From IMG/VR virus record IMGVR_UViG_3300045988_043987: 44,072 nucleotides of DNA; one strand, 5' to 3'. Within the stretch, counting starts at the first letter, position 1; each line of letters starts with the position of its first letter. This stretch comes from a virus (Duplodnaviria > Heunggongvirae > Uroviricota > Caudoviricetes). A program made the position numbers and the translations under genes. The notes beneath the pieces are model-generated. The model was not told the DNA's origin and did not search any database. It saw only the letters and a list, made by a program, of their open reading frames with translations. This document shows positions 5,213 through 44,072 of this stretch, one piece after another.

Positions 5213-5398
5213 TTAACAAGCTGATGTTGTCCAGTAATCACCATAATCATTTACGTAAAATTTCTTCATACCAGACCACCCGAAGTTCTTACATGTCTTT
5301 TTGAATCGCTTCATTACCTGTGTTCTTGTCAGCATCAAAACACTACCGTTTCCATCTCTTGCGAAATCTCCGCCGGACTTATATGGTTTCTTTTCCAC
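5213..5398 (-). CDS. hypothetical lysine-rich small protein (61 aa), antisense to late genes
   Basis: GTG start preceded by GGGGG; conserved operator/promoter motif directly upstream at 5424-5456. Confidence 0.4.
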   Translation of the reverse strand: MEKKPYKSGGDFARDGNGSVLMLTRTQVMKRFKKTCKNFGWSGMKKFYVNDYGDYWTTSAC

Positions 5399-5423
5399 TT
5401 TTATGCCCCCTGTTTAAATTAAC

Positions 5424-5456
5424 CGAATAGTACCCTATTATATTGGTGTCTGCAAA
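5424..5456. promoter_or_regulatory. conserved dyad operator/promoter motif, copy 1
   Basis: CGAATAGTACCCTATTATATTGGTGTCTGCAAA; core AATAG-N4-CTATT with TATAAT on the minus strand. Confidence 0.6.
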
Positions 5457-5499
5457 TATTATTTTTATGCGTTACACTGGCGATACTACAGGAGGGCTT

Positions 5500-7006: not shown

Positions 7007-7038
7007 AAAGGCCCCTTATGGGGCCTTAATTTTATTTA
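7007..7038. terminator. bidirectional intrinsic terminator
   Basis: AAAAGGCCCC-TTAT-GGGGCCTT followed by AATTTTATTT. Confidence 0.7.
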
Positions 7039-7553
7039 AATCGCGCTGGCATTAGCACCATAAATGCAGTGTTTGAAAATGATATTTTGCATCCTCTGAT
7101 TTGGTCCTGGAAATCGAAACGAGCGATTTCATTTTTGTATGCCTTAGAAATCTTGTGCGCGTCCGCCAAGTAGCGCAGGGTGAACCCTATGCTGTCAACC
7201 GCCCCCGGCGTGATGTGCGCCACACGTCTCCAGTCAGGAAACCTTCCGTCTACAACATCTACCGGAAGTGTACATATAAGCGCACGACTATCGTCATAGA
7301 AAGAAACGCTGCTGTTGTCGTGGTCTACTTCCGCGTAGTTAAATTTAGAAGGCTCTCTCCCTTTGATGTCTATGAGAACCGCATTCTCAACGTTTGTCTT
7401 AACGTTGTCGCAGAACAATCTATGACCGTCCGTAGACACTATCAATCCCTCCGGGTCTATGTAAAAAGCATTCAAATAATAGCGCACATCATTTTTAGCT
7501 CTGCATATTTTTGCCCCTACATACGCAGGGAAAGTAATTACTGTAGTAGCCAT
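7032..7553 (-). CDS. truncated beta sliding clamp (DnaN)-like protein
   Basis: segments DVRYYLNA, STDGHRLF, VDGRFPDWRRV, SIGFTLRYLADA and C-terminal MVLMPARFK match recalled enterobacterial DnaN domain II and C-terminus; GAGGAGG ribosome-binding site; own promoter motif. Confidence 0.7.
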   Translation of the reverse strand: MATTVITFPAYVGAKICRAKNDVRYYLNAFYIDPEGLIVSTDGHRLFCDNVKTNVENAVLIDIKGREPSKFNYAEVDHDNSSVSFYDDSRALICTLPVDVVDGRFPDWRRVAHITPGAVDSIGFTLRYLADAHKISKAYKNEIARFDFQDQIRGCKISFSNTAFMVLMPARFK

Positions 7554-7578
7554 TTTAACTCCTCCTCGTTTCGATAAC

Positions 7579-7611
7579 TGAATAGTACCCTATTATGTTG
7601 GGGTGTGCAAA
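7579..7611. promoter_or_regulatory. conserved dyad operator/promoter motif, copy 2
   Basis: TGAATAGTACCCTATTATGTTGGGGTGTGCAAA; minus-strand reading precedes the clamp-like gene's ribosome-binding site. Confidence 0.6.
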
Positions 7612-7661
7612 CTATTTATTAGCCTATTCCAGTTATTCCGCTCAATTGTAAATGTTGGAAT

Positions 7662-7704
7662 AAACTATTCGAATAGTTGACTTTTCACTAAAAATATGCT
7701 AAGC
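7662..7704 (+). promoter_or_regulatory. promoter of ncRNA A with upstream perfect palindrome
   Basis: palindrome AACTATTCGAATAGTT (7662-7677) overlapping -35 TTGACT (7676-7681); 17-bp spacer; -10 TAAGCT (7699-7704). Confidence 0.55.
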
Positions 7705-7710
7705 TCCACC

Positions 7711-7910
7711 TGAGCTTGTGAAGTATGAACAAGCGACCGCGGCGCGGGCAGGTAACGGAGCGGGACGTAAGTCCTGAGTGTAGTTACGCTGACGCGTTCG
7801 GAAGGGCCATACTCTATTGCTTGTGTAAAAAGTAACTGGTTTACTGAGATTACGCCGTTTCTATGTTTAAATGATAAGGACTAGCGCCCCGCTTTATGGC
7901 GGGGCTTTAC
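7711..7910 (+). ncRNA. candidate structured small RNA, paralog A
   Basis: own promoter; 5' hairpin GCUUGU-N9-ACAAGC; internal hairpin GGAC-GUAA-GUCC; conserved 3' segment UUCGGAAGGGCCAUA; terminator-like hairpin GCCCCGC-N6-GCGGGGC plus U-rich tail; paralog at 38625. Confidence 0.5.
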
Positions 7911-14672: not shown

Positions 14673-14697
14673 AAGGCCCCTTTCGGGGCCTTTTTCT
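14673..14697. terminator. bidirectional intrinsic terminator
   Basis: AAGGCCCC-TTTC-GGGGCCTT plus TTTTT. Confidence 0.7.
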
Positions 14698-15251
14698 TAC
14701 AAACCTAATTTTAAAGCAATGTCTATAACGTTCGATTTAACGTCACCTGGTATGATGTAGGTGTCGTAATCTTTTACACCGCTAACATCATACAGATAAC
14801 CACGGCTGTCCCCCTCAAACGTATAGCCGTCGCGATGGAGGCGAACGATTCGCACGTCATGACCCGCGGCGACGATAGGGGCTACTTCGCTGGCGAACCC
14901 GCCGTCGGACACTACAAAAACTTCGTCGCCGTCTGGCAAGTTTTCAGCAAGATACTTACCGAAATAATCACTACCAAGTACCGGTTTAATGAATTGCTCA
15001 GATATAGCAATCATGAACTGACGCCGCGACAAGCCATTAAGGAAGCCTTCTGACTTTTCTTTCCGTGCCCGGTCGTCGTAGCCGTCGATAAACTCGTGGT
15101 AAGCATCCGGGCCTAATGCCGCCAGAGCGATATTGAACATTGGATTCTTGAAACTGGTGATTCCCTTCGCAAAGCCCATTTCTACCAGCGCCATAGCAAG
15201 TGTGTCTTTCCCGCAACCCGCCGGGCCATTAAGAATAATTACCTTAGCCAT
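14697..15251 (-). CDS. deoxynucleoside monophosphate kinase (T4 gp1-like)
   Basis: P-loop NGPAGCGKDT near N-terminus. Confidence 0.7.
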   Translation of the reverse strand: MAKVIILNGPAGCGKDTLAMALVEMGFAKGITSFKNPMFNIALAALGPDAYHEFIDGYDDRARKEKSEGFLNGLSRRQFMIAISEQFIKPVLGSDYFGKYLAENLPDGDEVFVVSDGGFASEVAPIVAAGHDVRIVRLHRDGYTFEGDSRGYLYDVSGVKDYDTYIIPGDVKSNVIDIALKLGL

Positions 15252-15739
15252 TATTTATCGCTCCCGTGTGGTTTTAAGTGTGTAGAGTTCCCGTTACAGT
15301 CGTATTCAGTAACCGCGTGAGTGGTTATACCGAGTCCGCGGAAATGCTTTATTACCGCGGGAGAGTCGTCGAATGCGCACAAGATTCTTTCCAGCCCGAT
15401 AGCACGTAACACCTCTTCTTTAATTACGATGTCTTTTCTGTTGTCGTGTTTGCTGCGCATTATCAGCGTGTCAAACTTAACGTTATTTTCTCGCAACCAT
15501 TTACGAGTCCCATCCTCAGCGTCGTCGCTTCGACCGGTAAGGATGATTACGGTCATCCCGGTATGCCACAGCGTGTTGCACAAGTGAATGTTGTCATATA
15601 TCGGCGCATCATCTTTGCACGCCATGTTAAATGGCCTCCAAGCCCATGTTTCGCCGTAGTTATCTTTCGGCAGCAGGTGCAAACGATGTGTACCATCTGC
15701 TAATGTCCCGTCTAAATCGAAAATTACAATATCTTTCAT
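15251..15739 (-). CDS. HAD-superfamily phosphatase/nucleotidase
   Basis: HAD motif I FDLDGTL at N-terminus. Confidence 0.7.
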   Translation of the reverse strand: MKDIVIFDLDGTLADGTHRLHLLPKDNYGETWAWRPFNMACKDDAPIYDNIHLCNTLWHTGMTVIILTGRSDDAEDGTRKWLRENNVKFDTLIMRSKHDNRKDIVIKEEVLRAIGLERILCAFDDSPAVIKHFRGLGITTHAVTEYDCNGNSTHLKPHGSDK

Positions 15740-16866
15740 CCCAGCATCTCCGGTGAAATAGTTAAACGCGCAACCTCGCCATATTCGGCGCTATATGTAA
15801 TTACGTTTGCACTGCGGCCTGACATCCATCCGCCGCGAGAGGCGTAGGCGTCTTTAGCCGCCAGGGTGCGGTGTTGCTCGACAATCATGTTACGACTTTC
15901 TACAATCTTCTGGTGGTGCAGGTGGCCCACGTGAGCGTAGCTGTAAACACTCTCGCCGAACGCTTTACGGAACTTGGCAATCATAACAGGTTCGATAGCG
16001 TCGAATCGCGCCTTATGGCCGTGATGAAAGAACAGAGTCGTTTTGCCGTGTCGCACCATCTTGTAAACATCCGGCGACGTATCGACGAACACACGCGGCT
16101 CGTTGTCGTACAGCGTGCTAAACATCTCAGCCAACCAAATCATTCCGCTTTCGTCGTGGTTCCCTTGCACGATAAGCAAGCGAACATTTTTATGCTTAAC
16201 AAGGGCCATATCAACAACACGGCGGACCATACGAATCATGTAGCGGACAAGTTTCTGATAACGGGTGTCAGCATCAAGAACATTACCACTCGCCGGTGTA
16301 ACGGCAACCAGACTATCGAAGTGCGCAAGGTCCCCAAGCAGGTTAATAACCCCTGTTCCCGCATCCGGTGCTTTCTGAAACGCGGCATCGAACCAGCGGG
16401 AGAACAGGTCTTCTGCAATCTTCATATCCCAGTCGTCGCCGCTTTCATCGGCCCAGGCCAGCATACCGAGATGGAAATCAGATACCGTGTAAAGATTGAG
16501 TAGTTTATCGTCGCGTTTAGCCCGAACGGCTTTAACAGGAGCAACGGGGGTAATCTCCGACTTCATCCCTTCGATTACGGCTTTCATCAACTCTACCTGA
16601 CGTTCGGCATCGGTGTCGGTCTTAACCCATTGCAGCTTAGTGTTGCCGAACTCGTCCACCAGTGACGACGTGCCTTTAATCTTGTAGCCGTCTGGTACAA
16701 GATGACTGACGTCGCGGCCGTGCCCTACGCCTTTCTTAGCCAGCTTCGCTTTACGGATACGAATAACGCGATCTGAGATGCCATATTTACGGGCTATATC
16801 GATATTCCTCAATCCGGCGTTCAATTCTTCCTGTAACTGTTCGTCGGTTATTTTCTTCCGGGCCAT
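15736..16866 (-). CDS. metallophosphoesterase (SbcD/Mre11-like motifs) with N-terminal helix-turn-helix
   Basis: motifs SDFHLG, GDLAHFD, GNHDE, GHLHH; N-terminal helix-turn-helix ARKYGISDRVIRIRKAKL. Confidence 0.65.
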   Translation of the reverse strand: MARKKITDEQLQEELNAGLRNIDIARKYGISDRVIRIRKAKLAKKGVGHGRDVSHLVPDGYKIKGTSSLVDEFGNTKLQWVKTDTDAERQVELMKAVIEGMKSEITPVAPVKAVRAKRDDKLLNLYTVSDFHLGMLAWADESGDDWDMKIAEDLFSRWFDAAFQKAPDAGTGVINLLGDLAHFDSLVAVTPASGNVLDADTRYQKLVRYMIRMVRRVVDMALVKHKNVRLLIVQGNHDESGMIWLAEMFSTLYDNEPRVFVDTSPDVYKMVRHGKTTLFFHHGHKARFDAIEPVMIAKFRKAFGESVYSYAHVGHLHHQKIVESRNMIVEQHRTLAAKDAYASRGGWMSGRSANVITYSAEYGEVARLTISPEMLG

Positions 16867-16904
16867 GCTTACGTCCTCGTGTTTAGGATTTGTCCTATAC
16901 TAGC

Positions 16905-17096
16905 TCACTTCTCGTTAACATTCGAGTTGCACGCCCAGATTAAAATAAACACCCACGGCAGCAGAACCCATCCGAGAAACAGGTTAGCCATGAATATCGC
17001 TAACTTCGCTTTATGGTTACGGAAGTATGCAACCAGGAAAGGTGCGAAATAGGCGAGCAGTGCAAACAGAATTAAGGAAACTGGTAAACTTGACAT
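16905..17096 (-). CDS. small membrane protein (about 63 aa, 2 TM helices)
   Basis: hydrophobic helices; AAGGGG before ATG at 17096; first gene of antisense operon. Confidence 0.5.
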   Translation of the reverse strand: MSSLPVSLILFALLAYFAPFLVAYFRNHKAKLAIFMANLFLGWVLLPWVFILIWACNSNVNEK

Positions 17097-17122
17097 TTTA
17101 AACCCCTTCATTGTTGGTGTAA

Positions 17123-17156
17123 GTGAATAGTACCCTATTATATTGGGGCGCGCAAG
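17123..17156. promoter_or_regulatory. conserved dyad operator/promoter motif, copy 3
   Basis: GTGAATAGTACCCTATTATATTGGGGCGCGCAAG. Confidence 0.6.
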
Positions 17157-17263
17157 TAGTGTGCTAGAATAAGTTTGCGCCTAGTGTCGCACACGAAAAG
17201 CGGGTGGTTCCCGTCTGGCGCATTTATCGTTAACCTGTAACCTCTTAACCAAAGGATTAAAGA

Positions 17264-29461: not shown

Positions 29462-29492
29462 TTGGTGTAGGACTAACTATAGTAGTTCGCTA
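29462..29492 (-). promoter_or_regulatory. sigma70-like promoter (TTGACG-17-TATAGT) with dyad operator in spacer
   Basis: minus-strand TTGACG, 17-bp spacer containing AATAGCGAACTACTAT, -10 TATAGT. Confidence 0.5.
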
Positions 29493-29757
29493 TTAGGTCG
29501 TCAACCTGTTTGAACGAACCAACGACAAAAACATTTGCACCACGTTTGCGCATCCGCTCGTGCTCTCGTAACTGGTGCGGGTCAGGCTTCGTGCTTTCGT
29601 CTTTCTTAACCTCGACGAACCAGATGATGCCGCCGGGGAGAATTACCAGCAGGTCAGGAGCGCCGGAGCGCCCCTCGTAGGAAAGTTTACGAACGAGGCC
29701 ACCAATGGCCTCGAATCGCTCTTTTGCGTATTTCTGTATTTTTCCTTCCGGGGTCAC
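29473..29757 (-). CDS. VRR-NUC domain nuclease
   Basis: PD-(D/E)XK-like pattern GAPDLLVILPGGIIWFVEVKK ... HQLREHERMRKRGANVFVV. Confidence 0.65.
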   Translation of the reverse strand: MTPEGKIQKYAKERFEAIGGLVRKLSYEGRSGAPDLLVILPGGIIWFVEVKKDESTKPDPHQLREHERMRKRGANVFVVGSFKQVDDLIANYYS

Positions 29758-32394: not shown

Positions 32395-33024
32395 TTAACG
32401 GCGACGACGTTCGCGACGTGGTGCGTCATCTTCTTCGTCGTCTTCAAGGTCGTCGGTGCTCGCTACTACACTGGAGCCTCCGAAGCGTTTACCTTCTCCC
32501 ATATACTTGATACCAAGGATGGTAGCGCACAGGTTTTTCCAATCTTTGTGCCACCATAATTCTACAGATACGTTTGCTACACAACCGCTATAAACCTGCT
32601 CCCCTTCTACTTCCTTCCCGTCGATGTTGAAATCAGGCTCGGTTTGTTTTTCACCTTTAGCCGATGTCATAATCACCGGTTGGCGGTTGTTAGTAGCACG
32701 GAAGTACAGACCTTCTTCAAAATCCTCAATCGGATTGTCGCGCATTGCCAGGTCGCGGACGCAGCATTTGTCTGCGTGGTGGTCTGCACCGTAGTTGGCC
32801 TTCATCCATTTCTCAGCAGCAGCAGCCCCGATTGCCTCTGTTACAACTTCCATAGCGGTATCGTAAAGCGCATCAATTTGAGGATGGTCCGGCTGCATAA
32901 GAACAGTAACCTGATATTTACCCTTAATCAGTTTACCGGTTTTCTTGTCCTCAGAGTCGGCAGCACGTTCAAATACATTAACCCATGCAGTGTTTACTTT
33001 ACGCAGATTCAGCTTAATACCCAT
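32395..33024 (-). CDS. single-stranded DNA-binding protein (T7 gp2.5-like, putative)
   Basis: overall pattern and acidic C-terminal stretch DDLEDDEEDD, here followed by RRERRRR. Confidence 0.5.
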   Translation of the reverse strand: MGIKLNLRKVNTAWVNVFERAADSEDKKTGKLIKGKYQVTVLMQPDHPQIDALYDTAMEVVTEAIGAAAAEKWMKANYGADHHADKCCVRDLAMRDNPIEDFEEGLYFRATNNRQPVIMTSAKGEKQTEPDFNIDGKEVEGEQVYSGCVANVSVELWWHKDWKNLCATILGIKYMGEGKRFGGSSVVASTDDLEDDEEDDAPRRERRRR

Positions 33025-33074: not shown

Positions 33075-33106
33075 TGGTTAGAAATATAATAGCTAACTAT
33101 TCAGGT
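33075..33106 (-). promoter_or_regulatory. sigma70-like promoter (TTGACA-17-TATATT) with dyad operator in spacer
   Basis: minus-strand GTGTTGACA, 17-bp spacer containing TGAATAGTTAGCTATT, -10 TATATT; upstream of SSB gene. Confidence 0.6.
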
Positions 33107-34675: not shown

Positions 34676-35146
34676 TTATTCTTCTTCGAAATACTTGTTC
34701 TTGATTGCTGTCAAGCGTTCCAGGTATTCAGCCAGGTCTTCGTCTTTAATCGCAGCAATCTTCATCTTCTTGCCGGTGAACTCTTCCAGCAGTTCATCTG
34801 AATCATCGCACGCGGCATCGCTAGGACCTTCGTTAATAGCATCGTCGATAGCCTGAATCTGGTCACGCAGAGACTGGTAATCTACCTCTTCCTTCTCTTC
34901 TTCCGGCTCTGGCGTTGGTTCCTCTACTTTAGCTTTACGCGGCTTGCGTTTCGGCTTCTCTTCTTCTGCCGGTTTAGTGTCGACGATGTCTTCACCTTCG
35001 ACCGGGATTTCTTTTGTTGCTTCTTTTACAACATTAGGCTCAATTGTTGCGGTTTCAGCAACGACAACTTGTTTCGCACTGTTCGCAGCAATCAGTTCAT
35101 GTGCAACTACGAAACGTTCCAGTAATACTAAGAATTTCTCTAACAT
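34676..35146 (-). CDS. hypothetical acidic protein (156 aa)
   Basis: Glu/Asp-rich ORF; GAGAGGAGAGA before start. Confidence 0.55.
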   Translation of the reverse strand: MLEKFLVLLERFVVAHELIAANSAKQVVVAETATIEPNVVKEATKEIPVEGEDIVDTKPAEEEKPKRKPRKAKVEEPTPEPEEEKEEVDYQSLRDQIQAIDDAINEGPSDAACDDSDELLEEFTGKKMKIAAIKDEDLAEYLERLTAIKNKYFEEE

Positions 35147-35167
35147 TTGTTTCTCTCCTCTCGTTTG

Positions 35168-35200
35168 GTATGCACTAACTATAATAGCTAACTATTCATT
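35168..35200 (+). promoter_or_regulatory. dyad operator/promoter motif, copy upstream of helix-turn-helix gene (site 1)
   Basis: ATGCAC-TAAC-TATAAT-AGCTAACTATTCA. Confidence 0.55.
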
Positions 35201-35221
35201 ATGTCAATGGGCTTTTCTAAA

Positions 35222-35250
35222 ATAATTAATATGGTACTATTCACATATCA
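35222..35250 (+). promoter_or_regulatory. dyad operator/promoter motif, site 2, about 20 nt before ribosome-binding site of helix-turn-helix gene
   Basis: TAATATGGTACTATTCACAT, one mismatch from canonical copies. Confidence 0.55.
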
Positions 35251-35271
35251 ACTGACTAAGGAGTAATTGAC

Positions 35272-35487
35272 ATGCAACCATCTGAACTAGGCATCCGTGT
35301 AGAACAACGCCGTAAAGAACTCGGTATCTCCCAGCGCCGTCTGGCGGTCCTGGCCGGTGTTTCCCAGGGCGCGATTAACCAGCTGGCACTTGGAGTAACT
35401 CAGGACGTCCGCCCGGCGACGCTGTTCAAGCTGGCGGAAGTGCTGGAAGTAGACGCCAAGTGGCTGGCGTTCGGTGAAGGGGCTTAA
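35272..35487 (+). CDS. XRE-family (Cro/CI-like) helix-turn-helix transcriptional regulator
   Basis: helix-turn-helix signature ISQRRLAVLAGVSQGAINQL; AAGGAG ribosome-binding site; lone plus-strand gene in minus-strand module. Confidence 0.75.
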   Translation: MQPSELGIRVEQRRKELGISQRRLAVLAGVSQGAINQLALGVTQDVRPATLFKLAEVLEVDAKWLAFGEGA

Positions 35488-35503
35488 CGCCCCTTTCTTT
35501 TCA
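35477..35503 (+). terminator. intrinsic terminator
   Basis: GGGGC-TTAAC-GCCCC followed by TTTCTTTTC. Confidence 0.6.
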
Positions 35504-35527
35504 TTCCTCTACGGCTTTCTCGCATAA

Positions 35528-35638
35528 TCACTCGAGAAACGAAACAAGACCGCAGATTAAATCCTCAGAAACAATAAATTGGCCGTCATCTTCCTGTTCG
35601 CACTGCTTCAACTCAGCAATTAACTGTTCAGCGTTCAT
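35528..35638 (-). CDS. hypothetical acidic micro-protein (36 aa)
   Basis: ATGA coupling to primase stop; below track cutoff. Confidence 0.25.
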   Translation of the reverse strand: MNAEQLIAELKQCEQEDDGQFIVSEDLICGLVSFLE

Positions 35639-37896
35639 TCCAAATCCTCATCTGTCACCACCAGCATTTCATTCGGTTCGTATATTGTCTTCGGAATTTT
35701 GTTGTCGTTTATACCCCACGGCAGCCGGTACTGCTTAGGTATAGGTCTGTTGTTGCCATCCAGACCTGAGACGATAACCCCAGCCTCGTGCATCTCTTCC
35801 AGTTTCTTTCTAAGGTCGTTATTGGCGTTAATTGGTACGCCATAACTATCTTCTTTCGCGGCTTTGACGATAGCCGACATAGAGAACCCTCGCTTATCGT
35901 CGCCCTGCTCCTGCAATTTACCCAATGCGTAAATAACCGTAGCCTCTTTGGTGTCCAGTTTCTCGAACTGGCCTACCTTTTCTTTAACGGCTTCCTTCTG
36001 TTCGTCGGTCATACCTTCTACTTTCTTCACGAAGACAGAGAAGGCGTTAAAGTTAACAAAGACATCGATGTGCGGGTTTCCTGCGTCAAAATCGCGGACA
36101 TCATCACTACTGTACCCTTCCGGAAGACCCATGAAGTTGTGAGTTGGCTCTTTCTTTTTCGGTGGCTCCGCTATCTGAATCTTCTGTATTACAAATCCTC
36201 TGGCTTTCTGCCGTTCTCCGTTTCGGTTCTTTATGTGATACAGGTTTATCCCTAAGTTATTGTCGTTGTCAGGCTTATGCAGGAACATCCCGTTATCGAT
36301 GGAGTTGTGAAAGTCACTTCCACCCTTCGGCATCATGCCGTTTTCCGACGGTACTGTTTCGTCGATGTTTTTAGTCGGGTGCACCATAGCACCTACCGCG
36401 GCGTTAAGCGTCGACGCTATTTCGTTAAGTGCCTGCGCCGCTTCTTTCATTGACCTGTTGTCGTTTTCGTCAAAGCCAGGTATGCAAGTTTGCAGGGTAT
36501 CAAACGTAACCTTTACAATTTTCTCTTCACCGGCAACACGGCGCATCATTCTCACCACCTGACGTCGCCATGCTTCGTCGAGTAAGTTACATCCCTCCGC
36601 AACACAATCGATAATGTGCAAGCGGTCCAAGTTATCGCCGAGGGCAATCTGCAAAGATTTTTTATGTCGCTCGAACGACCGCACACCTTCACCCGCAAAA
36701 ATAAACGCATGACCTTCCGCTACCTCAGCCCCGCCGAACGCATATCTTTTTTCGGCAGCAATAGCGGCGTCAATCGCCATACTAAATGTTGACTTACCGG
36801 TATGCGACTTTGCACAAATGTAGAATGATTCGTTAGTCTGCATAAGACCATCTACGACGGAGTATGCAGGTTCTTTTTCTAATTCCGGCTCGTCTTCAAG
36901 GTCTTCCAGCGTGCAAGTTACAGGTTCCTCGTTCTCTGTGCGGTGCAGTTCTTCAATCTCTTCATCAGGTAAATCAGGCAGAGCCGCGCGAATGCTGTTA
37001 ACGCTGATAGGTTGCTTGTCTACGTTAAGCTCGTCAGGTAGACCACACATACGCAGGGCCAAATGCTGCCTACGGTTAAGCTCGGTGCAAGCGCCGTTGT
37101 TTGTATGCTGGCAGACAAAGCGCACTTCTTTACCGTCTAGCATGATGCTGGTGGAGCCTTTGCCTGTGTGCAGATGTTCGTTAGGGCATGGCACTTCGTA
37201 CCCGCGCCCGGAAGATAAAGCATCAAGCCCAAGCTCGGCTTCGCAGAAATGCGCTATATCTGCGTTAAGCCCATGCTCATCGGCAGCAAGTGTCTTGGCT
37301 TCGCGTTTACGCAACCCCATCTCTTCGGCTTTCTTGATGTACCGCTCGGCACGGATAACACGCCCCTCTGTAACCGTTATCTTCGACTCTTTATGCGGCA
37401 GGTAGATAAGGCGGTTGCCATCTTCTGTGCAGTGGTCACGCAGCGATTCATCTATTTCTAACTCTGCACAAATAGCCCGTTGCACCATCCACGCATCGTT
37501 AGAGTTAAACGGAGTGCGAGCCGGAACCAGAACGCGGAATGCGTAATCCCCGTTTTTACACGCGTGCTGATGCGATGCCGTTGTGTGCAGAATATTGAAG
37601 AACGGCGCGTTCTTGAATTTGCGTGTCAGGTCGCGGTACTGAGTACGGTTGAGATGGTCGAAGTCGAACTTAACCACACTGTCTTCCAGAATCGCATTCT
37701 TACGGCGACCGCCAACAGGAGCAATAGCCTTCTGCTTAATCTTAGCCGCGTCGTATTCTTCCTTAGTCCACGACGGGTCCACGGACAAACGCTTCGATGT
37801 ATCGCAGACGTACTCTACAAACTGCTCCAGCGGCATTTCACGTGCTACAGGGTTTTTATCGAATGTGTTACGCAGCGTTGCAAAAACAATATTCAT
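35635..37896 (-). CDS. DNA primase / P-loop ATPase (primase-helicase-like replication protein)
   Basis: Cys/His zinc-binding cluster, Walker A SHTGKST, 753 aa. Confidence 0.75.
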   Translation of the reverse strand: MNIVFATLRNTFDKNPVAREMPLEQFVEYVCDTSKRLSVDPSWTKEEYDAAKIKQKAIAPVGGRRKNAILEDSVVKFDFDHLNRTQYRDLTRKFKNAPFFNILHTTASHQHACKNGDYAFRVLVPARTPFNSNDAWMVQRAICAELEIDESLRDHCTEDGNRLIYLPHKESKITVTEGRVIRAERYIKKAEEMGLRKREAKTLAADEHGLNADIAHFCEAELGLDALSSGRGYEVPCPNEHLHTGKGSTSIMLDGKEVRFVCQHTNNGACTELNRRQHLALRMCGLPDELNVDKQPISVNSIRAALPDLPDEEIEELHRTENEEPVTCTLEDLEDEPELEKEPAYSVVDGLMQTNESFYICAKSHTGKSTFSMAIDAAIAAEKRYAFGGAEVAEGHAFIFAGEGVRSFERHKKSLQIALGDNLDRLHIIDCVAEGCNLLDEAWRRQVVRMMRRVAGEEKIVKVTFDTLQTCIPGFDENDNRSMKEAAQALNEIASTLNAAVGAMVHPTKNIDETVPSENGMMPKGGSDFHNSIDNGMFLHKPDNDNNLGINLYHIKNRNGERQKARGFVIQKIQIAEPPKKKEPTHNFMGLPEGYSSDDVRDFDAGNPHIDVFVNFNAFSVFVKKVEGMTDEQKEAVKEKVGQFEKLDTKEATVIYALGKLQEQGDDKRGFSMSAIVKAAKEDSYGVPINANNDLRKKLEEMHEAGVIVSGLDGNNRPIPKQYRLPWGINDNKIPKTIYEPNEMLVVTDEDLE

Positions 37897-38021
37897 TTCT
37901 TTTTCTCCGCACGTTCTAAGGCTTCCTGCATACGACGCATTGCGCGGTTCATCTTTACCGGTGCGAAGAAATCAGCGCCGTGTTTCTGGCGGCGTAGCTG
38001 TGGAACTATTAACTTCGTCAT
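37893..38021 (-). CDS. hypothetical basic micro-protein (42 aa)
   Basis: AAGGA ribosome-binding site; stop overlaps primase ATG (ATGA); below track cutoff. Confidence 0.3.
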   Translation of the reverse strand: MTKLIVPQLRRQKHGADFFAPVKMNRAMRRMQEALERAEKKK

Positions 38022-38089
38022 TGTATAATCCTTGTGCTTACTTTGATGATTTGTACTTTAACCCCGACGTTCTGGCGTTGGGGTTTCTT

Positions 38090-38302
38090 TTATTTATCGC
38101 CTGCAAACCACGCGTGCGCAGAATCATAGAAACGACATTTACTTAACATGTCTACCGGCATCTTAATAATGCGCGTCGGTTCCGACAAATGATTAGGTTT
38201 ACATATTTCTGCATAGAATCCGCTGTCGGTAATTTCTGACGCAAACTTAAACCAGTATTTAACTTTACCGTTCTCAAAGTAACAACCCATACGCCCAATC
38301 AT
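38090..38302 (-). CDS. hypothetical protein (70 aa)
   Basis: ORF coupled to upstream helix-turn-helix gene. Confidence 0.5.
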   Translation of the reverse strand: MIGRMGCYFENGKVKYWFKFASEITDSGFYAEICKPNHLSEPTRIIKMPVDMLSKCRFYDSAHAWFAGDK

Positions 38303-38481
38303 TTCACGTTCTCCTTAATCCACGCTTCAACTTTATTACGGTCAAATGTTCCAGGTAAACGGCGGCCCATAACCTTAATACAACAGTCGGGGAATTTACC
38401 ACTGCGTAACCAGTTATTAATTGTCTGACGTGTCACCCCAATACGTTCTGCTACTTCATTCTGGGTCATGTAATGTTGCAT
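38299..38481 (-). CDS. helix-turn-helix DNA-binding protein (AlpA/excisionase-like fold)
   Basis: MTQNEVAERIGVTRQTINNWLRSGKFP; AGGAG before ATG at 38481 (track ORF extends to 38553). Confidence 0.65.
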   Translation of the reverse strand: MQHYMTQNEVAERIGVTRQTINNWLRSGKFPDCCIKVMGRRLPGTFDRNKVEAWIKENVK

Positions 38482-38589
38482 TTTTATATCTCCTGTTTGT
38501 TTAGTGAAGCCAAGTATAGGATAGCGTGAATGTAAAAGCAACCAAAACACCACACAAAGTTACTAAGATACAAAAGATGCTACTGGTAT

Positions 38590-38618
38590 TGACTTTTACT
38601 AAGAAATATGCTAAGCTC
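38590..38618 (+). promoter_or_regulatory. promoter of ncRNA B (TTGACT - 17 bp - TAAGCT)
   Basis: same hexamers and spacing as ncRNA A promoter. Confidence 0.55.
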
Positions 38619-38624
38619 GTCCTG

Positions 38625-38836
38625 AGCTTGTGAAGTATGAACAAGCGACCGCGGTGCGCGGCAGGCGAAACGAGCACGTCTCGACGTGTGGAGTGAGTCT
38701 CGCTGGCGCATTCGGAAGGGCCATAGTCTATTGTTATTCCCGCCTAAGTATCTAAGTTACTGATTTGACGTAGGTTAGAACCGCAAGCTCACTCACTCAC
38801 TCTTGGTGCCTTCGGCACCCCGTTCGTTTCGTTTCG
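38625..38836 (+). ncRNA. candidate structured small RNA, paralog B
   Basis: shares 5' 37 nt and 3' UUCGGAAGGGCCAUA segment with paralog A; internal hairpin CACGU-CUCG-ACGUG; terminator-like GGUGCC-UUCG-GCACC plus U-rich tail. Confidence 0.5.
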
Positions 38837-38885: not shown

Positions 38886-38919
38886 CTTGCACACCCCAAT
38901 ATAATAGGATACTATTCAC
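38886..38919 (+). promoter_or_regulatory. conserved dyad operator/promoter motif, copy 4 (TTGCAC-N7-TATAAT-AGGATACTATTCAC)
   Basis: perfect TATAAT at 38900-38905; about 30 nt upstream of ribosome-binding site of 38950 gene. Confidence 0.6.
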
Positions 38920-38949
38920 TTATCGAAACGAGACAGAGGAGTGAGGGTT

Positions 38950-40412: not shown

Positions 40413-40447
40413 CTTGCACGCTAAGATAGAATAGGCTACTATTCACT
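40413..40447 (+). promoter_or_regulatory. conserved dyad operator/promoter motif, copy 5 (TTGCAC-N7-TAGAAT-AGGCTACTATTCAC)
   Basis: same architecture and leader (CACAAACGAGAGGAG) as copy 4. Confidence 0.55.
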
Positions 40448-43933: not shown

Positions 43934-43962
43934 CCGGCCCTGACCTAGCCGGGATTTTTTTT
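43934..43962 (+). terminator. intrinsic terminator
   Basis: CCCGGC-N9-GCCGGG followed by T8. Confidence 0.7.
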
Positions 43963-44072
43963 ATCTATTTTCTATAATGACTAGTTGACTATTATCTACG
44001 ACCCTACTATATTTACTCCATCGACAACGAGAACGGAGTAGAGAGAAATGATGACTAAGATTAAGCATACCG
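43954..44072. repeat. terminal direct repeat, right copy (identical to 1-119)
   Basis: exact 119-bp repetition of the window start. Confidence 0.9.

Follow-up and report, generated by a model that had tools for sequence, protein, structure and literature searches.

A candidate 434-Cro-type repressor and its putative promoter-embedded operators in a virulent Kagunavirus

Results

A lone Cro-like gene in the replication module

The stretch of DNA analysed here (the window; 44,072 nucleotides, IMG/VR record IMGVR_UViG_3300045988_043987) encodes a 71-residue helix-turn-helix (HTH) protein of the XRE type at positions 35272-35487 of the plus strand, stop codon included. The original prediction had singled this gene out as the only plus-strand gene within a minus-strand replication module, and indeed every other long open reading frame (ORF) between 26401 and 38553 lies on the minus strand. 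The gene itself was equally well supported. Its product matched Pfam HTH_3 (PF01381) over residues 11-65 with an E-value of 2.3e-12 and 47.2 bits against a cut-off of 23, and it also matched Pfam HTH_19 and HTH_31 as well as transcription-regulator families of PHROG. A Shine-Dalgarno sequence, AAGGAG (35258-35263, plus strand), could be read 8 nt upstream of the ATG; across 35 distinct Kagunavirus versions of the upstream region it was mostly kept, one version having AAGGAA. At the other end of the gene, a predicted intrinsic terminator (35476-35506, plus strand) consists of a hairpin that spans the stop codon (35476-35496; a stem of 8 pairs, 5 of them G-C) and a subsequent T-run with the tail CTTTTCATTC, at which the XRE transcript would end. 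In 36 Kagunavirus copies of the gene (34 distinct DNA sequences), 56 of the 71 codons varied, 45 of these 56 only synonymously, and the variable sites were distributed over codon positions 1, 2 and 3 as 12, 2 and 51. The gene thus appears to be under strong purifying selection.

A 1.1-kb query around the XRE gene matched 435 phage records, the closest being Kagunavirus and K1-type Escherichia phages at approximately 90-95% identity. The first 119 bases of the window are identical to positions 43954-44072, through either an assembly overlap or a terminal repeat, and the window therefore represents one complete genome of ~43,953 bp. It is the genome of a Kagunavirus (subfamily Guernseyvirinae), a virulent phage of Escherichia coli. 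Published descriptions of Kagunavirus phages report the absence of lysogeny genes. This agrees with the earlier statement that no integrase or lysogeny module is present, as no integrase was detected in Pfam scans of 35 window ORFs, while a few of the large ORFs were identified only via their synteny with annotated relatives.

In GenBank records the XRE gene is labelled loosely as Cro, repressor or DicA, and it had been described as Cro-like in the original prediction. This description held for both sequence and fold. A phmmer search of the whole PDB returned 434 Cro as the best match (E 5.4e-7; residues 6-68 aligned with residues 4-64). An AlphaFold2 (AF2) model, which was built from the single sequence and was confident enough for a fold search (pLDDT 84), contained five helices at residues 5-17, 21-28, 32-39, 48-57 and 62-66. 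In Foldseek, its top match was again 434 Cro (2cro), with template-modelling (TM) scores of 0.73/0.79 and 40% identity. The protein has the make-up of a 434-Cro-type single-domain regulator, being about 70 residues long with a five-helix fold and without a C-terminal oligomerisation or peptidase domain. Gln28 of 434 Cro, at the start of the recognition helix, aligns with Gln32 of the XRE protein, and this glutamine is invariant in all five XRE types that were aligned. The 434 Cro protein is also 71 residues long; it binds dyads of 14 bp in which the outer bases are conserved and the centre varies, and its operator reads ACAA-N6-TTGT.

Two back-to-back promoters with one dyad each

The intergenic region upstream of the XRE gene measures 125 bp (35147-35271). 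As had been claimed, it holds two copies of an AATAG-N4-CTATT dyad, and the intervals first assigned to them proved to be padded versions of the 14-bp cores. The first, O1, is the perfect dyad AATAG-CTAA-CTATT at 35183-35196 (AATAGCTAACTATT; no mismatches). The second, O2, is the imperfect dyad AATAT-GGTA-CTATT at 35228-35241 (AATATGGTACTATT; 1 mismatch). The gap between O2 and the Shine-Dalgarno sequence is 16 nt, slightly shorter than the roughly 20 nt to the ribosome-binding site that had been estimated.

Each of the two dyads was found in the core of a different promoter. O2 covers the -10 element of a putative rightward promoter for the XRE gene (plus strand), which from its sequence would consist of an extended -10 (TGGTACTAT, 35232-35240) and a weak -35, with a predicted start near 35247. 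This assignment is supported by the clear -35 boxes of the orthologous rightward promoters in Jerseyvirus, Cornellvirus and the lineages represented by loci L052 and L054, which read TTGCAC, TTGCGT, TTGTAC and TTGCCG, respectively, and lie 17-18 bp from the -10. O1 lies in the spacer of a leftward promoter and touches its -10. This minus-strand promoter (35178-35207) combines TTGACA (35207-35202) with TATAGT (35183-35178) across an 18-bp spacer, matches the consensus at 11 of 12 positions, has the joint top promoter score between 26 and 44 kb, and has both hexamers invariant in relatives. It is predicted to drive the gene at 34676-35146 and the replication and recombination genes downstream. 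The gene at 34676-35146 (minus strand; PHROG 3127) is the first of this leftward operon and encodes a 156-residue protein of unknown function. A homologue of it adjoins the XRE gene in each lineage that shares this synteny, it was found in 481 phage records, and the record counts of the XRE gene in the phage collection equal those of this neighbour.

The two copies had originally been taken for a tandem operator array upstream of the XRE gene, which does not fit their arrangement. Their centres are 45 bp apart, and they occupy the cores of two different promoters that stand back to back. In Jerseyvirus the distance is 55 bp, in Cornellvirus it is 63 bp, and two other lineages have 64-65 bp. 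Lambda-style cooperative tandem operators were therefore rejected, the spacing being both long and not conserved between lineages. The proposed autoregulation of the Cro/CI type fared in two ways: negative autoregulation remains plausible because a dyad overlaps the promoter of the XRE gene itself, while a lambda-style array is unsupported. Further features of a lambdoid immunity region were likewise missing at this locus. Instead of a CI partner, the divergently oriented neighbour is the 156-residue protein, followed by replication and recombination genes, and instead of three adjacent sites at fixed helical phase there are two sites, 45 bp apart here and 55-65 bp apart in other lineages. We conclude that O1 and O2 are putative operators, one per promoter, that belong to a genome-wide set.

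Dyads in promoter cores throughout the genome

Allowing at most one mismatch, AATAG-N4-CTATT occurred 12 times in the window against 1.03 expected, and none of 100 shuffled sequences reached this number. Two of the 12 matches represent the same site, seen twice through the 119-bp terminal overlap, which leaves 11 unique sites. In an unbiased count, AATAG-4-CTATT was also the most frequent exact dyad of the 5-Ng-5 type in the genome. Nine of the 11 sites lie wholly within the non-coding part, which amounts to 9.9% of the genome by a greedy and crude gene call, and the other two touch doubtful ORF ends in this call. Every site overlaps a -35/17-18 bp/-10 arrangement, and the three best promoter scores between 26 and 44 kb belong to dyad sites.

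Besides O2, the sites could be divided into three classes according to where the dyad sits. In the first class (5426, 7581 and 17126, leftward; 38903 and 40430, rightward), the promoter is of the form TTGCAC-17-TACTAT and the -10 falls within the right half-site. The leftward members are located at 17126-17139 (TTGCGC-17-TACTAT), ahead of an island of Imm_superinfect, phosphoesterase and PNKP-phosphatase genes; at 7581-7594 (TTGCAC-17-TACTAT), ahead of the gene at 7032-7553; and at 5426-5439 (TTGCAG-17-TACTAT), ahead of the gene at 5213-5398. Both rightward members have TTGCAC-17-TACTAT; the dyad at 38903-38916 (AATAGGATACTATT) precedes early small genes, and the one at 40430-40443 (AATAGGCTACTATT) belongs to a repeat family, D4. 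The second class is made up of the leftward promoters at 29481, 33088 and 35183 in the replication block, to which the three best promoter scores between 26 and 44 kb belong. They read TTGACR-17/18-TATAGT or TATATT, and compared with the first class the dyad is shifted upstream of the -10 by another 5-6 bp and falls in the spacer. In addition to O1, this class comprises the dyad at 33088-33101 (AATAGCTAACTATT), in the spacer of TTGACA-17-TATATT (11 of 12 consensus positions) upstream of the gene 32395-33024 (209 residues), whose Cornellvirus counterpart is annotated as DUF2815, and of the DNA polymerase gene. It also comprises the dyad at 29481-29494 (1 mismatch), in the spacer of TTGACG-17-TATAGT ahead of the helicase/methylase block; its mismatch is at position 13 of the 14-mer, where the base of the window was found in few relatives. 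In the third class, the dyad overlaps a -35 of sequence TTGACT. It consists of the dyad-like site at 27-40 (equivalent to 43980-43993; ACTAGTTGACTATT), over the -35 of TTGACT-17-TATATT ahead of the terminase/structural operon, and of the rightward site at 7672-7685 (1 mismatch), the weakest of the set. All 14 positions of the site at 27-40 were invariant in 26 loci, and the equivalent promoter of the terminase operon in L052 and L054 bears the dyad of those lineages. The operons behind dyad promoters thus include replication and recombination genes, early small genes, three minus-strand islands in the structural module and the operon that leads to the terminase genes.

A 39-nt repeat family, D1, with 82-85% identity, comprises the three leftward promoters of the structural module (5420-5458, 7575-7613 and 17120-17158), as if a copy of a promoter-operator cassette had travelled with each small island of minus-strand genes. 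The island behind the 17126 promoter (14697-17111, minus strand) encodes an Imm_superinfect protein (E 9e-13), a PNKP-type HAD phosphatase (E 6e-20), a weakly metallophosphoesterase-like protein and a 184-residue protein of unknown function; it may be an RNA-repair or counter-defence cassette. Promoter-like matches were also seen on the opposite, minus strand through two dyads, namely TCGATA-17-TATATT at 38898-38926 and TTGATA-18-AATTAT at 35222-35251, each with 9 of 12 consensus positions and a chance-level score. Some dyads may accordingly be read as candidates for control of transcription in both directions.

Operator versus plain promoter sequence

Conceivably, the dyad could be a built-in element of one kind of phage promoter that works without any repressor, its symmetry being incidental or resulting from bidirectional promoter use. 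Such a reading has been put forward for a Kagunavirus, in which a PHIRE analysis found the consensus tgAATAGTa-ccTATTat-T at seven sites and called these sites phage-specific, that is phage-polymerase, promoters (PMC9825357). It is also in line with the overlap of every dyad with a promoter, the right half-site often being part of the -10 (TACTAT), with the position of several dyads at divergent gene junctions, with the opposite-strand promoter-like match through some of them and with the duplication of some dyad promoters as D1 cassettes. None of the ORFs of the window, however, combines the length and location that a phage RNA polymerase gene should have. Judged by synteny with annotated relatives, the five largest correspond to the tape measure, a tail protein, the tailspike, the DNA polymerase and the primase-helicase. 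A phage RNA polymerase was not among these largest ORFs, only part of the ORFs having been scanned, and the sites fit the 17-18 bp spacing of sigma-70 promoters.

The pattern of sequence variation at the dyads also argues for operators. In the 35 distinct Kagunavirus versions of the XRE upstream region, the half-sites of both O1 and O2 were invariant. The central 4 bp of O1 took six forms (CTAA, CGAA, TGAA, CAAA, CTAG and CGAG), only the third central base of O2 varied, and the stretch between O1 and the -35 was variable and contained an indel. The same combination of invariant half-sites and a variable centre was observed at six other dyad sites. As a background for this invariance, 51 of the 71 third codon positions in the adjoining XRE gene vary. 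Furthermore, the register of the dyad differs by promoter class and by genus. The first base of the -10 falls on dyad position 8, 11 or 14, and in a fourth arrangement it is the -35 that the dyad overlaps. Whatever the register, the two hexamers stay 17-18 bp apart, and in this sense the dyad is separable from the promoter. The left half-site falls in the promoter spacer, which is not read by sigma-70, and in other lineages it changes jointly with the right half-site. An intrinsic promoter element would be hard to reconcile with a left half-site that is invariant while its neighbours vary, with four registers relative to the -10 and -35, and with half-sites that change together, and we regard this explanation as quite unlikely. 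The 11 positions have the design of operators, with dyads of ~14 bp, invariant outer half-sites, variable centres and overlap with promoter cores, and the XRE protein is their presumed reader.

Dyads and recognition helices across Guernseyvirinae

Two scans of viral contigs yielded 73 loci, and those with the same neighbour genes, together with GenBank genomes, were sorted into seven XRE types by their recognition helix (helix 3). Dyads were counted with at most one mismatch, and expectations were obtained by Markov resimulation. AATAG-4-CTATT was enriched with three of the helix types: SQGAINQL, found in the Kagunavirus window (11 sites, 1.0 expected) and in L040 (8, 0.5 expected), where the XRE protein is 80% identical; SQSLITHL in Jerseyvirus (9, 1.1 expected); and SQGMLNHL in Serratia phage Tsm2 (4, 0.5 expected). 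With SQGRVSHI, in L054, AATAG and AATAC forms were found side by side (4 each, with 0.7 and 0.6 expected), and with TQGGIGHI, in L052, the dyad was AATAC-4-GTATT (4, 0.1 expected). Cornellvirus (TQSAISHL) had mixed ATTAS-4-STAAT dyads (8-9, ~4 expected) and no AATAG dyad. Likewise, L060 and L064 (SQGYISHL) had no AATAG dyad and carried TTAGC-2-GCTAA (5, 0.3-0.5 expected), which in the L060 type was located at equivalent promoters, that is upstream of the orthologue of 32395-33024, at the early rightward promoters and in the XRE promoter region. Half-site composition differed between Kagunavirus and Cornellvirus at position 2 (Fisher, p 0.0016) and between Kagunavirus and L052 at position 5 (p 0.00012), although the sites of a given genome are only partly independent of one another. 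In every lineage, the O1-type site in the leftward promoter was perfect or nearly so, and the site in the XRE promoter was degenerate. A residue-to-base code was not retained from the seven helix types: the groups separate, but Kagunavirus and Jerseyvirus have a common dyad despite differing helix residues.

The lineages also differ in what follows the XRE gene. In Cornellvirus, Tsm2, L052 and L054 it is the first gene of a rightward operon that continues into the primase-helicase gene. In Kagunavirus and Jerseyvirus, the block of ~35.5-38.6 kb with the primase-helicase, small ORFs and an AlpA-like HTH gene has the opposite orientation, as seen by comparing window positions 35500-38600 with 34570-37300 of L002 and 7030-9570 of L004. 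As a result, the XRE gene stands alone on its strand, monocistronic and convergent with the block. The place of the XRE gene in Cornellvirus, Tsm2, L052 and L054 resembles that of cro in lambdoid phages, ahead of the replication genes. Between the primase-helicase gene and the XRE terminator, the minus strand holds an ORF for 37 residues (35527-35640; MNAEQLIAELKQCEQEDDGQFIVSEDLICGLVSFLE) that starts at the primase-helicase stop and is below the size cut-off of the ORF list.

Candidates for the dyad-reading protein

The XRE gene was the only HTH gene present in every Guernseyvirinae lineage examined, and it therefore kept the position of prime candidate for the motif reader that the original prediction had given it. 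Nevertheless, the dyads could be genuine protein-binding sites that are read by another factor, such as the AlpA-like HTH protein, a NinH-like protein, the 156-residue protein or a host factor, with the XRE protein controlling its own promoter or another target. Two further proteins of DNA-binding type are indeed encoded in the window. The AlpA-like HTH gene (38299-38481; HTH_17, E 1.6e-8) is found only in Kagunavirus and Jerseyvirus, its products being 82% identical, and these two genera thus have the protein and the dyad in common. An HTH gene was, in addition, among only four early genes in RNA sequencing (RNA-seq) of Kagunavirus K1B4 (PMC12645636). The NinH-like protein (1263-1523) is encoded ahead of the terminase genes, with a Pfam E-value of 6e-5 that is below the cut-off, and the 156-residue protein occurs in all lineages.

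The distribution of these proteins, however, does not follow that of the dyads. No AlpA-like HTH was detected by tblastn, with E-values up to 1, in three complete genomes (VSiA, PhiSTP2 and Tsm2; handles L002, L003 and L004) or in the partial loci of three further lineages (L052, L054 and L060), and all six still have dyad promoters. It was consequently rejected as a general binder of the dyads, and the comparison of the two genes that had been suggested with the original prediction came out in favour of the XRE gene, which is present throughout. The NinH-like protein was rejected as well: Tsm2 has AATAG dyads but lacks this protein, and in the Jerseyvirus, Cornellvirus and L054 lineages, whose dyads differ, it is conserved at 61-69% identity. 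No DNA-binding domain was found by Pfam in the 156-residue protein. Lastly, Jerseyvirus and Cornellvirus both infect Salmonella and have different dyads, which favours a phage-encoded reader over a common host factor. Taken together, we consider it unlikely that a phage or host factor other than the XRE protein reads the dyads.

A duplicated element elsewhere in the window

The non-coding gaps at 7677-7860 and 38589-38775 contain a duplicated plus-strand element of ~200 nt, the copies of which match over 70 nt at 89% and over 38 nt at 87% identity at the same offset (~190 aligned columns). Each copy starts with a promoter-like TTGACT-17-TAAGCT, contains the hairpin AAGCTC-N5-GAGCTT and is followed by a terminator-like hairpin (7886-7905 and 38805-38819, respectively). 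From these features the elements look like two paralogous small-RNA genes or leaders. An Rfam scan of the whole window, including both copies, found no family at gathering score.

Discussion

On the evidence presented above, we consider it reasonably probable that the 71-residue protein is a stand-alone global repressor of the 434-Cro type in a virulent Kagunavirus, one that represses itself too. Specifically, we infer from the sequence comparisons that the XRE protein binds the dyads, that this binding represses, and in which order the sites fill. The protein would be made from its own weak extended -10 promoter, and its dimers would bind the 14-bp AATAG-N4-CTATT dyads found within the -35, spacer or -10 of most of the phage promoters that are recognisable as sigma-70-type. 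Once bound to a dyad, the protein would block RNA polymerase. Occupation would begin at perfect sites, for example at O1 in the strong leftward promoter of the replication genes, and would reach the imperfect O2 over the -10 of the XRE promoter later, resulting in negative autoregulation. The net effect would be a Cro-like turn-down of phage transcription as the XRE protein accumulates. Such graded occupancy fits the finding that the XRE-promoter site is degenerate and the leftward-promoter site perfect or near-perfect in every lineage.

Several observations weigh against this proposal. The covariation of helix and dyad provides no clean recognition code, since the XRE proteins of Kagunavirus and Jerseyvirus are only 52% identical and differ in helix 3 but go with the same dyad. 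The Cornellvirus sites mix ATTA and AATA half-sites and are weakly enriched, and approximately seven lineages are too few for a statistically decisive link of helix type with dyad type. As all dyads overlap promoters, the constraint on an operator is not fully separable from that on a promoter, and the sites of one genome are non-independent, some of the promoters being duplicated cassettes. If the XRE protein closes nearly all promoters, the escape of the late genes from repression is left unexplained. Moreover, in the K1B4 RNA-seq study, which had coarse time points, a gene for 'specific DNA binding' next to an AAA gene apparently belonged to the middle class (PMC12645636); its equation with the XRE gene rests on gene order only.

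The breadth of the set also allows a different view of what binding is for. The XRE protein might bind the dyads as proposed but serve mainly to silence incoming related genomes, thus conferring superinfection immunity, or to establish a reversible carrier state with low expression. The presence of a site at nearly all promoters, including that of the terminase and structural operon, resembles silencing of a whole genome more than a switch from early to late expression, and the dyad specificity of related phages is split into several groups. The immunity regions of temperate phages likewise diverge into specificity groups. Set against this, the sequence holds no evidence for maintenance functions, no carrier state is reported in the papers that were consulted, and the XRE promoter is weak and bears an operator, which would limit accumulation of the protein. 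Immunity or a carrier state as the main role therefore seems very unlikely to us.

The turn-down of transcription by a 434-Cro-type repressor that we favour can be compared with several known systems. Like 434 Cro (PDB 2CRO, 3CRO and 1ZUG), the XRE protein has 71 residues, a single five-helix HTH domain and a glutamine in the recognition helix; its putative targets are 14-bp dyads with a free centre that overlap promoter cores, and in several related lineages its gene heads the replication operon. Unlike in phage 434, there is no divergent CI repressor, integrase or other lysogeny gene, and the half-site sequence is different. In place of three-site tandem operators in two operator regions, there is one site per promoter over ~11 promoters, and the XRE gene of the window is monocistronic and convergent with the primase-helicase operon. 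The use of many scattered short sites at or near promoters by one small regulator is familiar from P1 C1, gp71 of mycobacteriophage L5 with its 'stoperators' and the phiC31 repressor with its conserved inverted repeats. These are maintenance repressors of temperate phages, from other protein families or with other site designs, whereas the protein studied here is a minimal Cro-type domain from a virulent phage. The same fold is found in XRE antitoxins (HipB, HigA) and in the C-proteins of restriction-modification systems, which were lower-ranked sequence and structure matches to the XRE protein and which, as small autoregulators, bind dyads within the promoters of their own genes. In contrast to these, the sites of the phage are distributed over the genome and not confined to one promoter. 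A role as controller of a toxin-antitoxin or restriction-modification system was rejected: the XRE gene has no co-transcribed toxin or restriction-modification partner, it lies between a promoter and a terminator of its own, and the flanking genes occupy the opposite strand. Systems of this kind are textbook, and the conceptual surprise is modest. The motif had been described before and the gene was already labelled as Cro or repressor; we found neither the linkage of the two nor the resulting regulon in the published literature that was searched.

Kagunavirus and Jerseyvirus phages are often isolated and are put forward for therapy and food safety, while their transcription programme is essentially uncharacterised. 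As a bolder and rather unlikely extension, virulent Guernseyvirinae could keep a Cro-type 'governor' that silences nearly every promoter and whose specificity falls into at least 4-5 groups, amounting to heteroimmunity without lysogeny. If true, this would mean competition between related phages, with superinfecting genomes being silenced, or reversible dormancy, and not a simple early shut-off. Short of that, the linkage of dyad and XRE protein yields a testable regulatory map in which most operons are assigned a promoter and one small repressor would act on ~11 operators. The lineage-specific operator variants provide a natural series on how a minimal helix-turn-helix protein changes its specificity, and the dyad promoters and their candidate repressor could serve as compact control parts for engineering.

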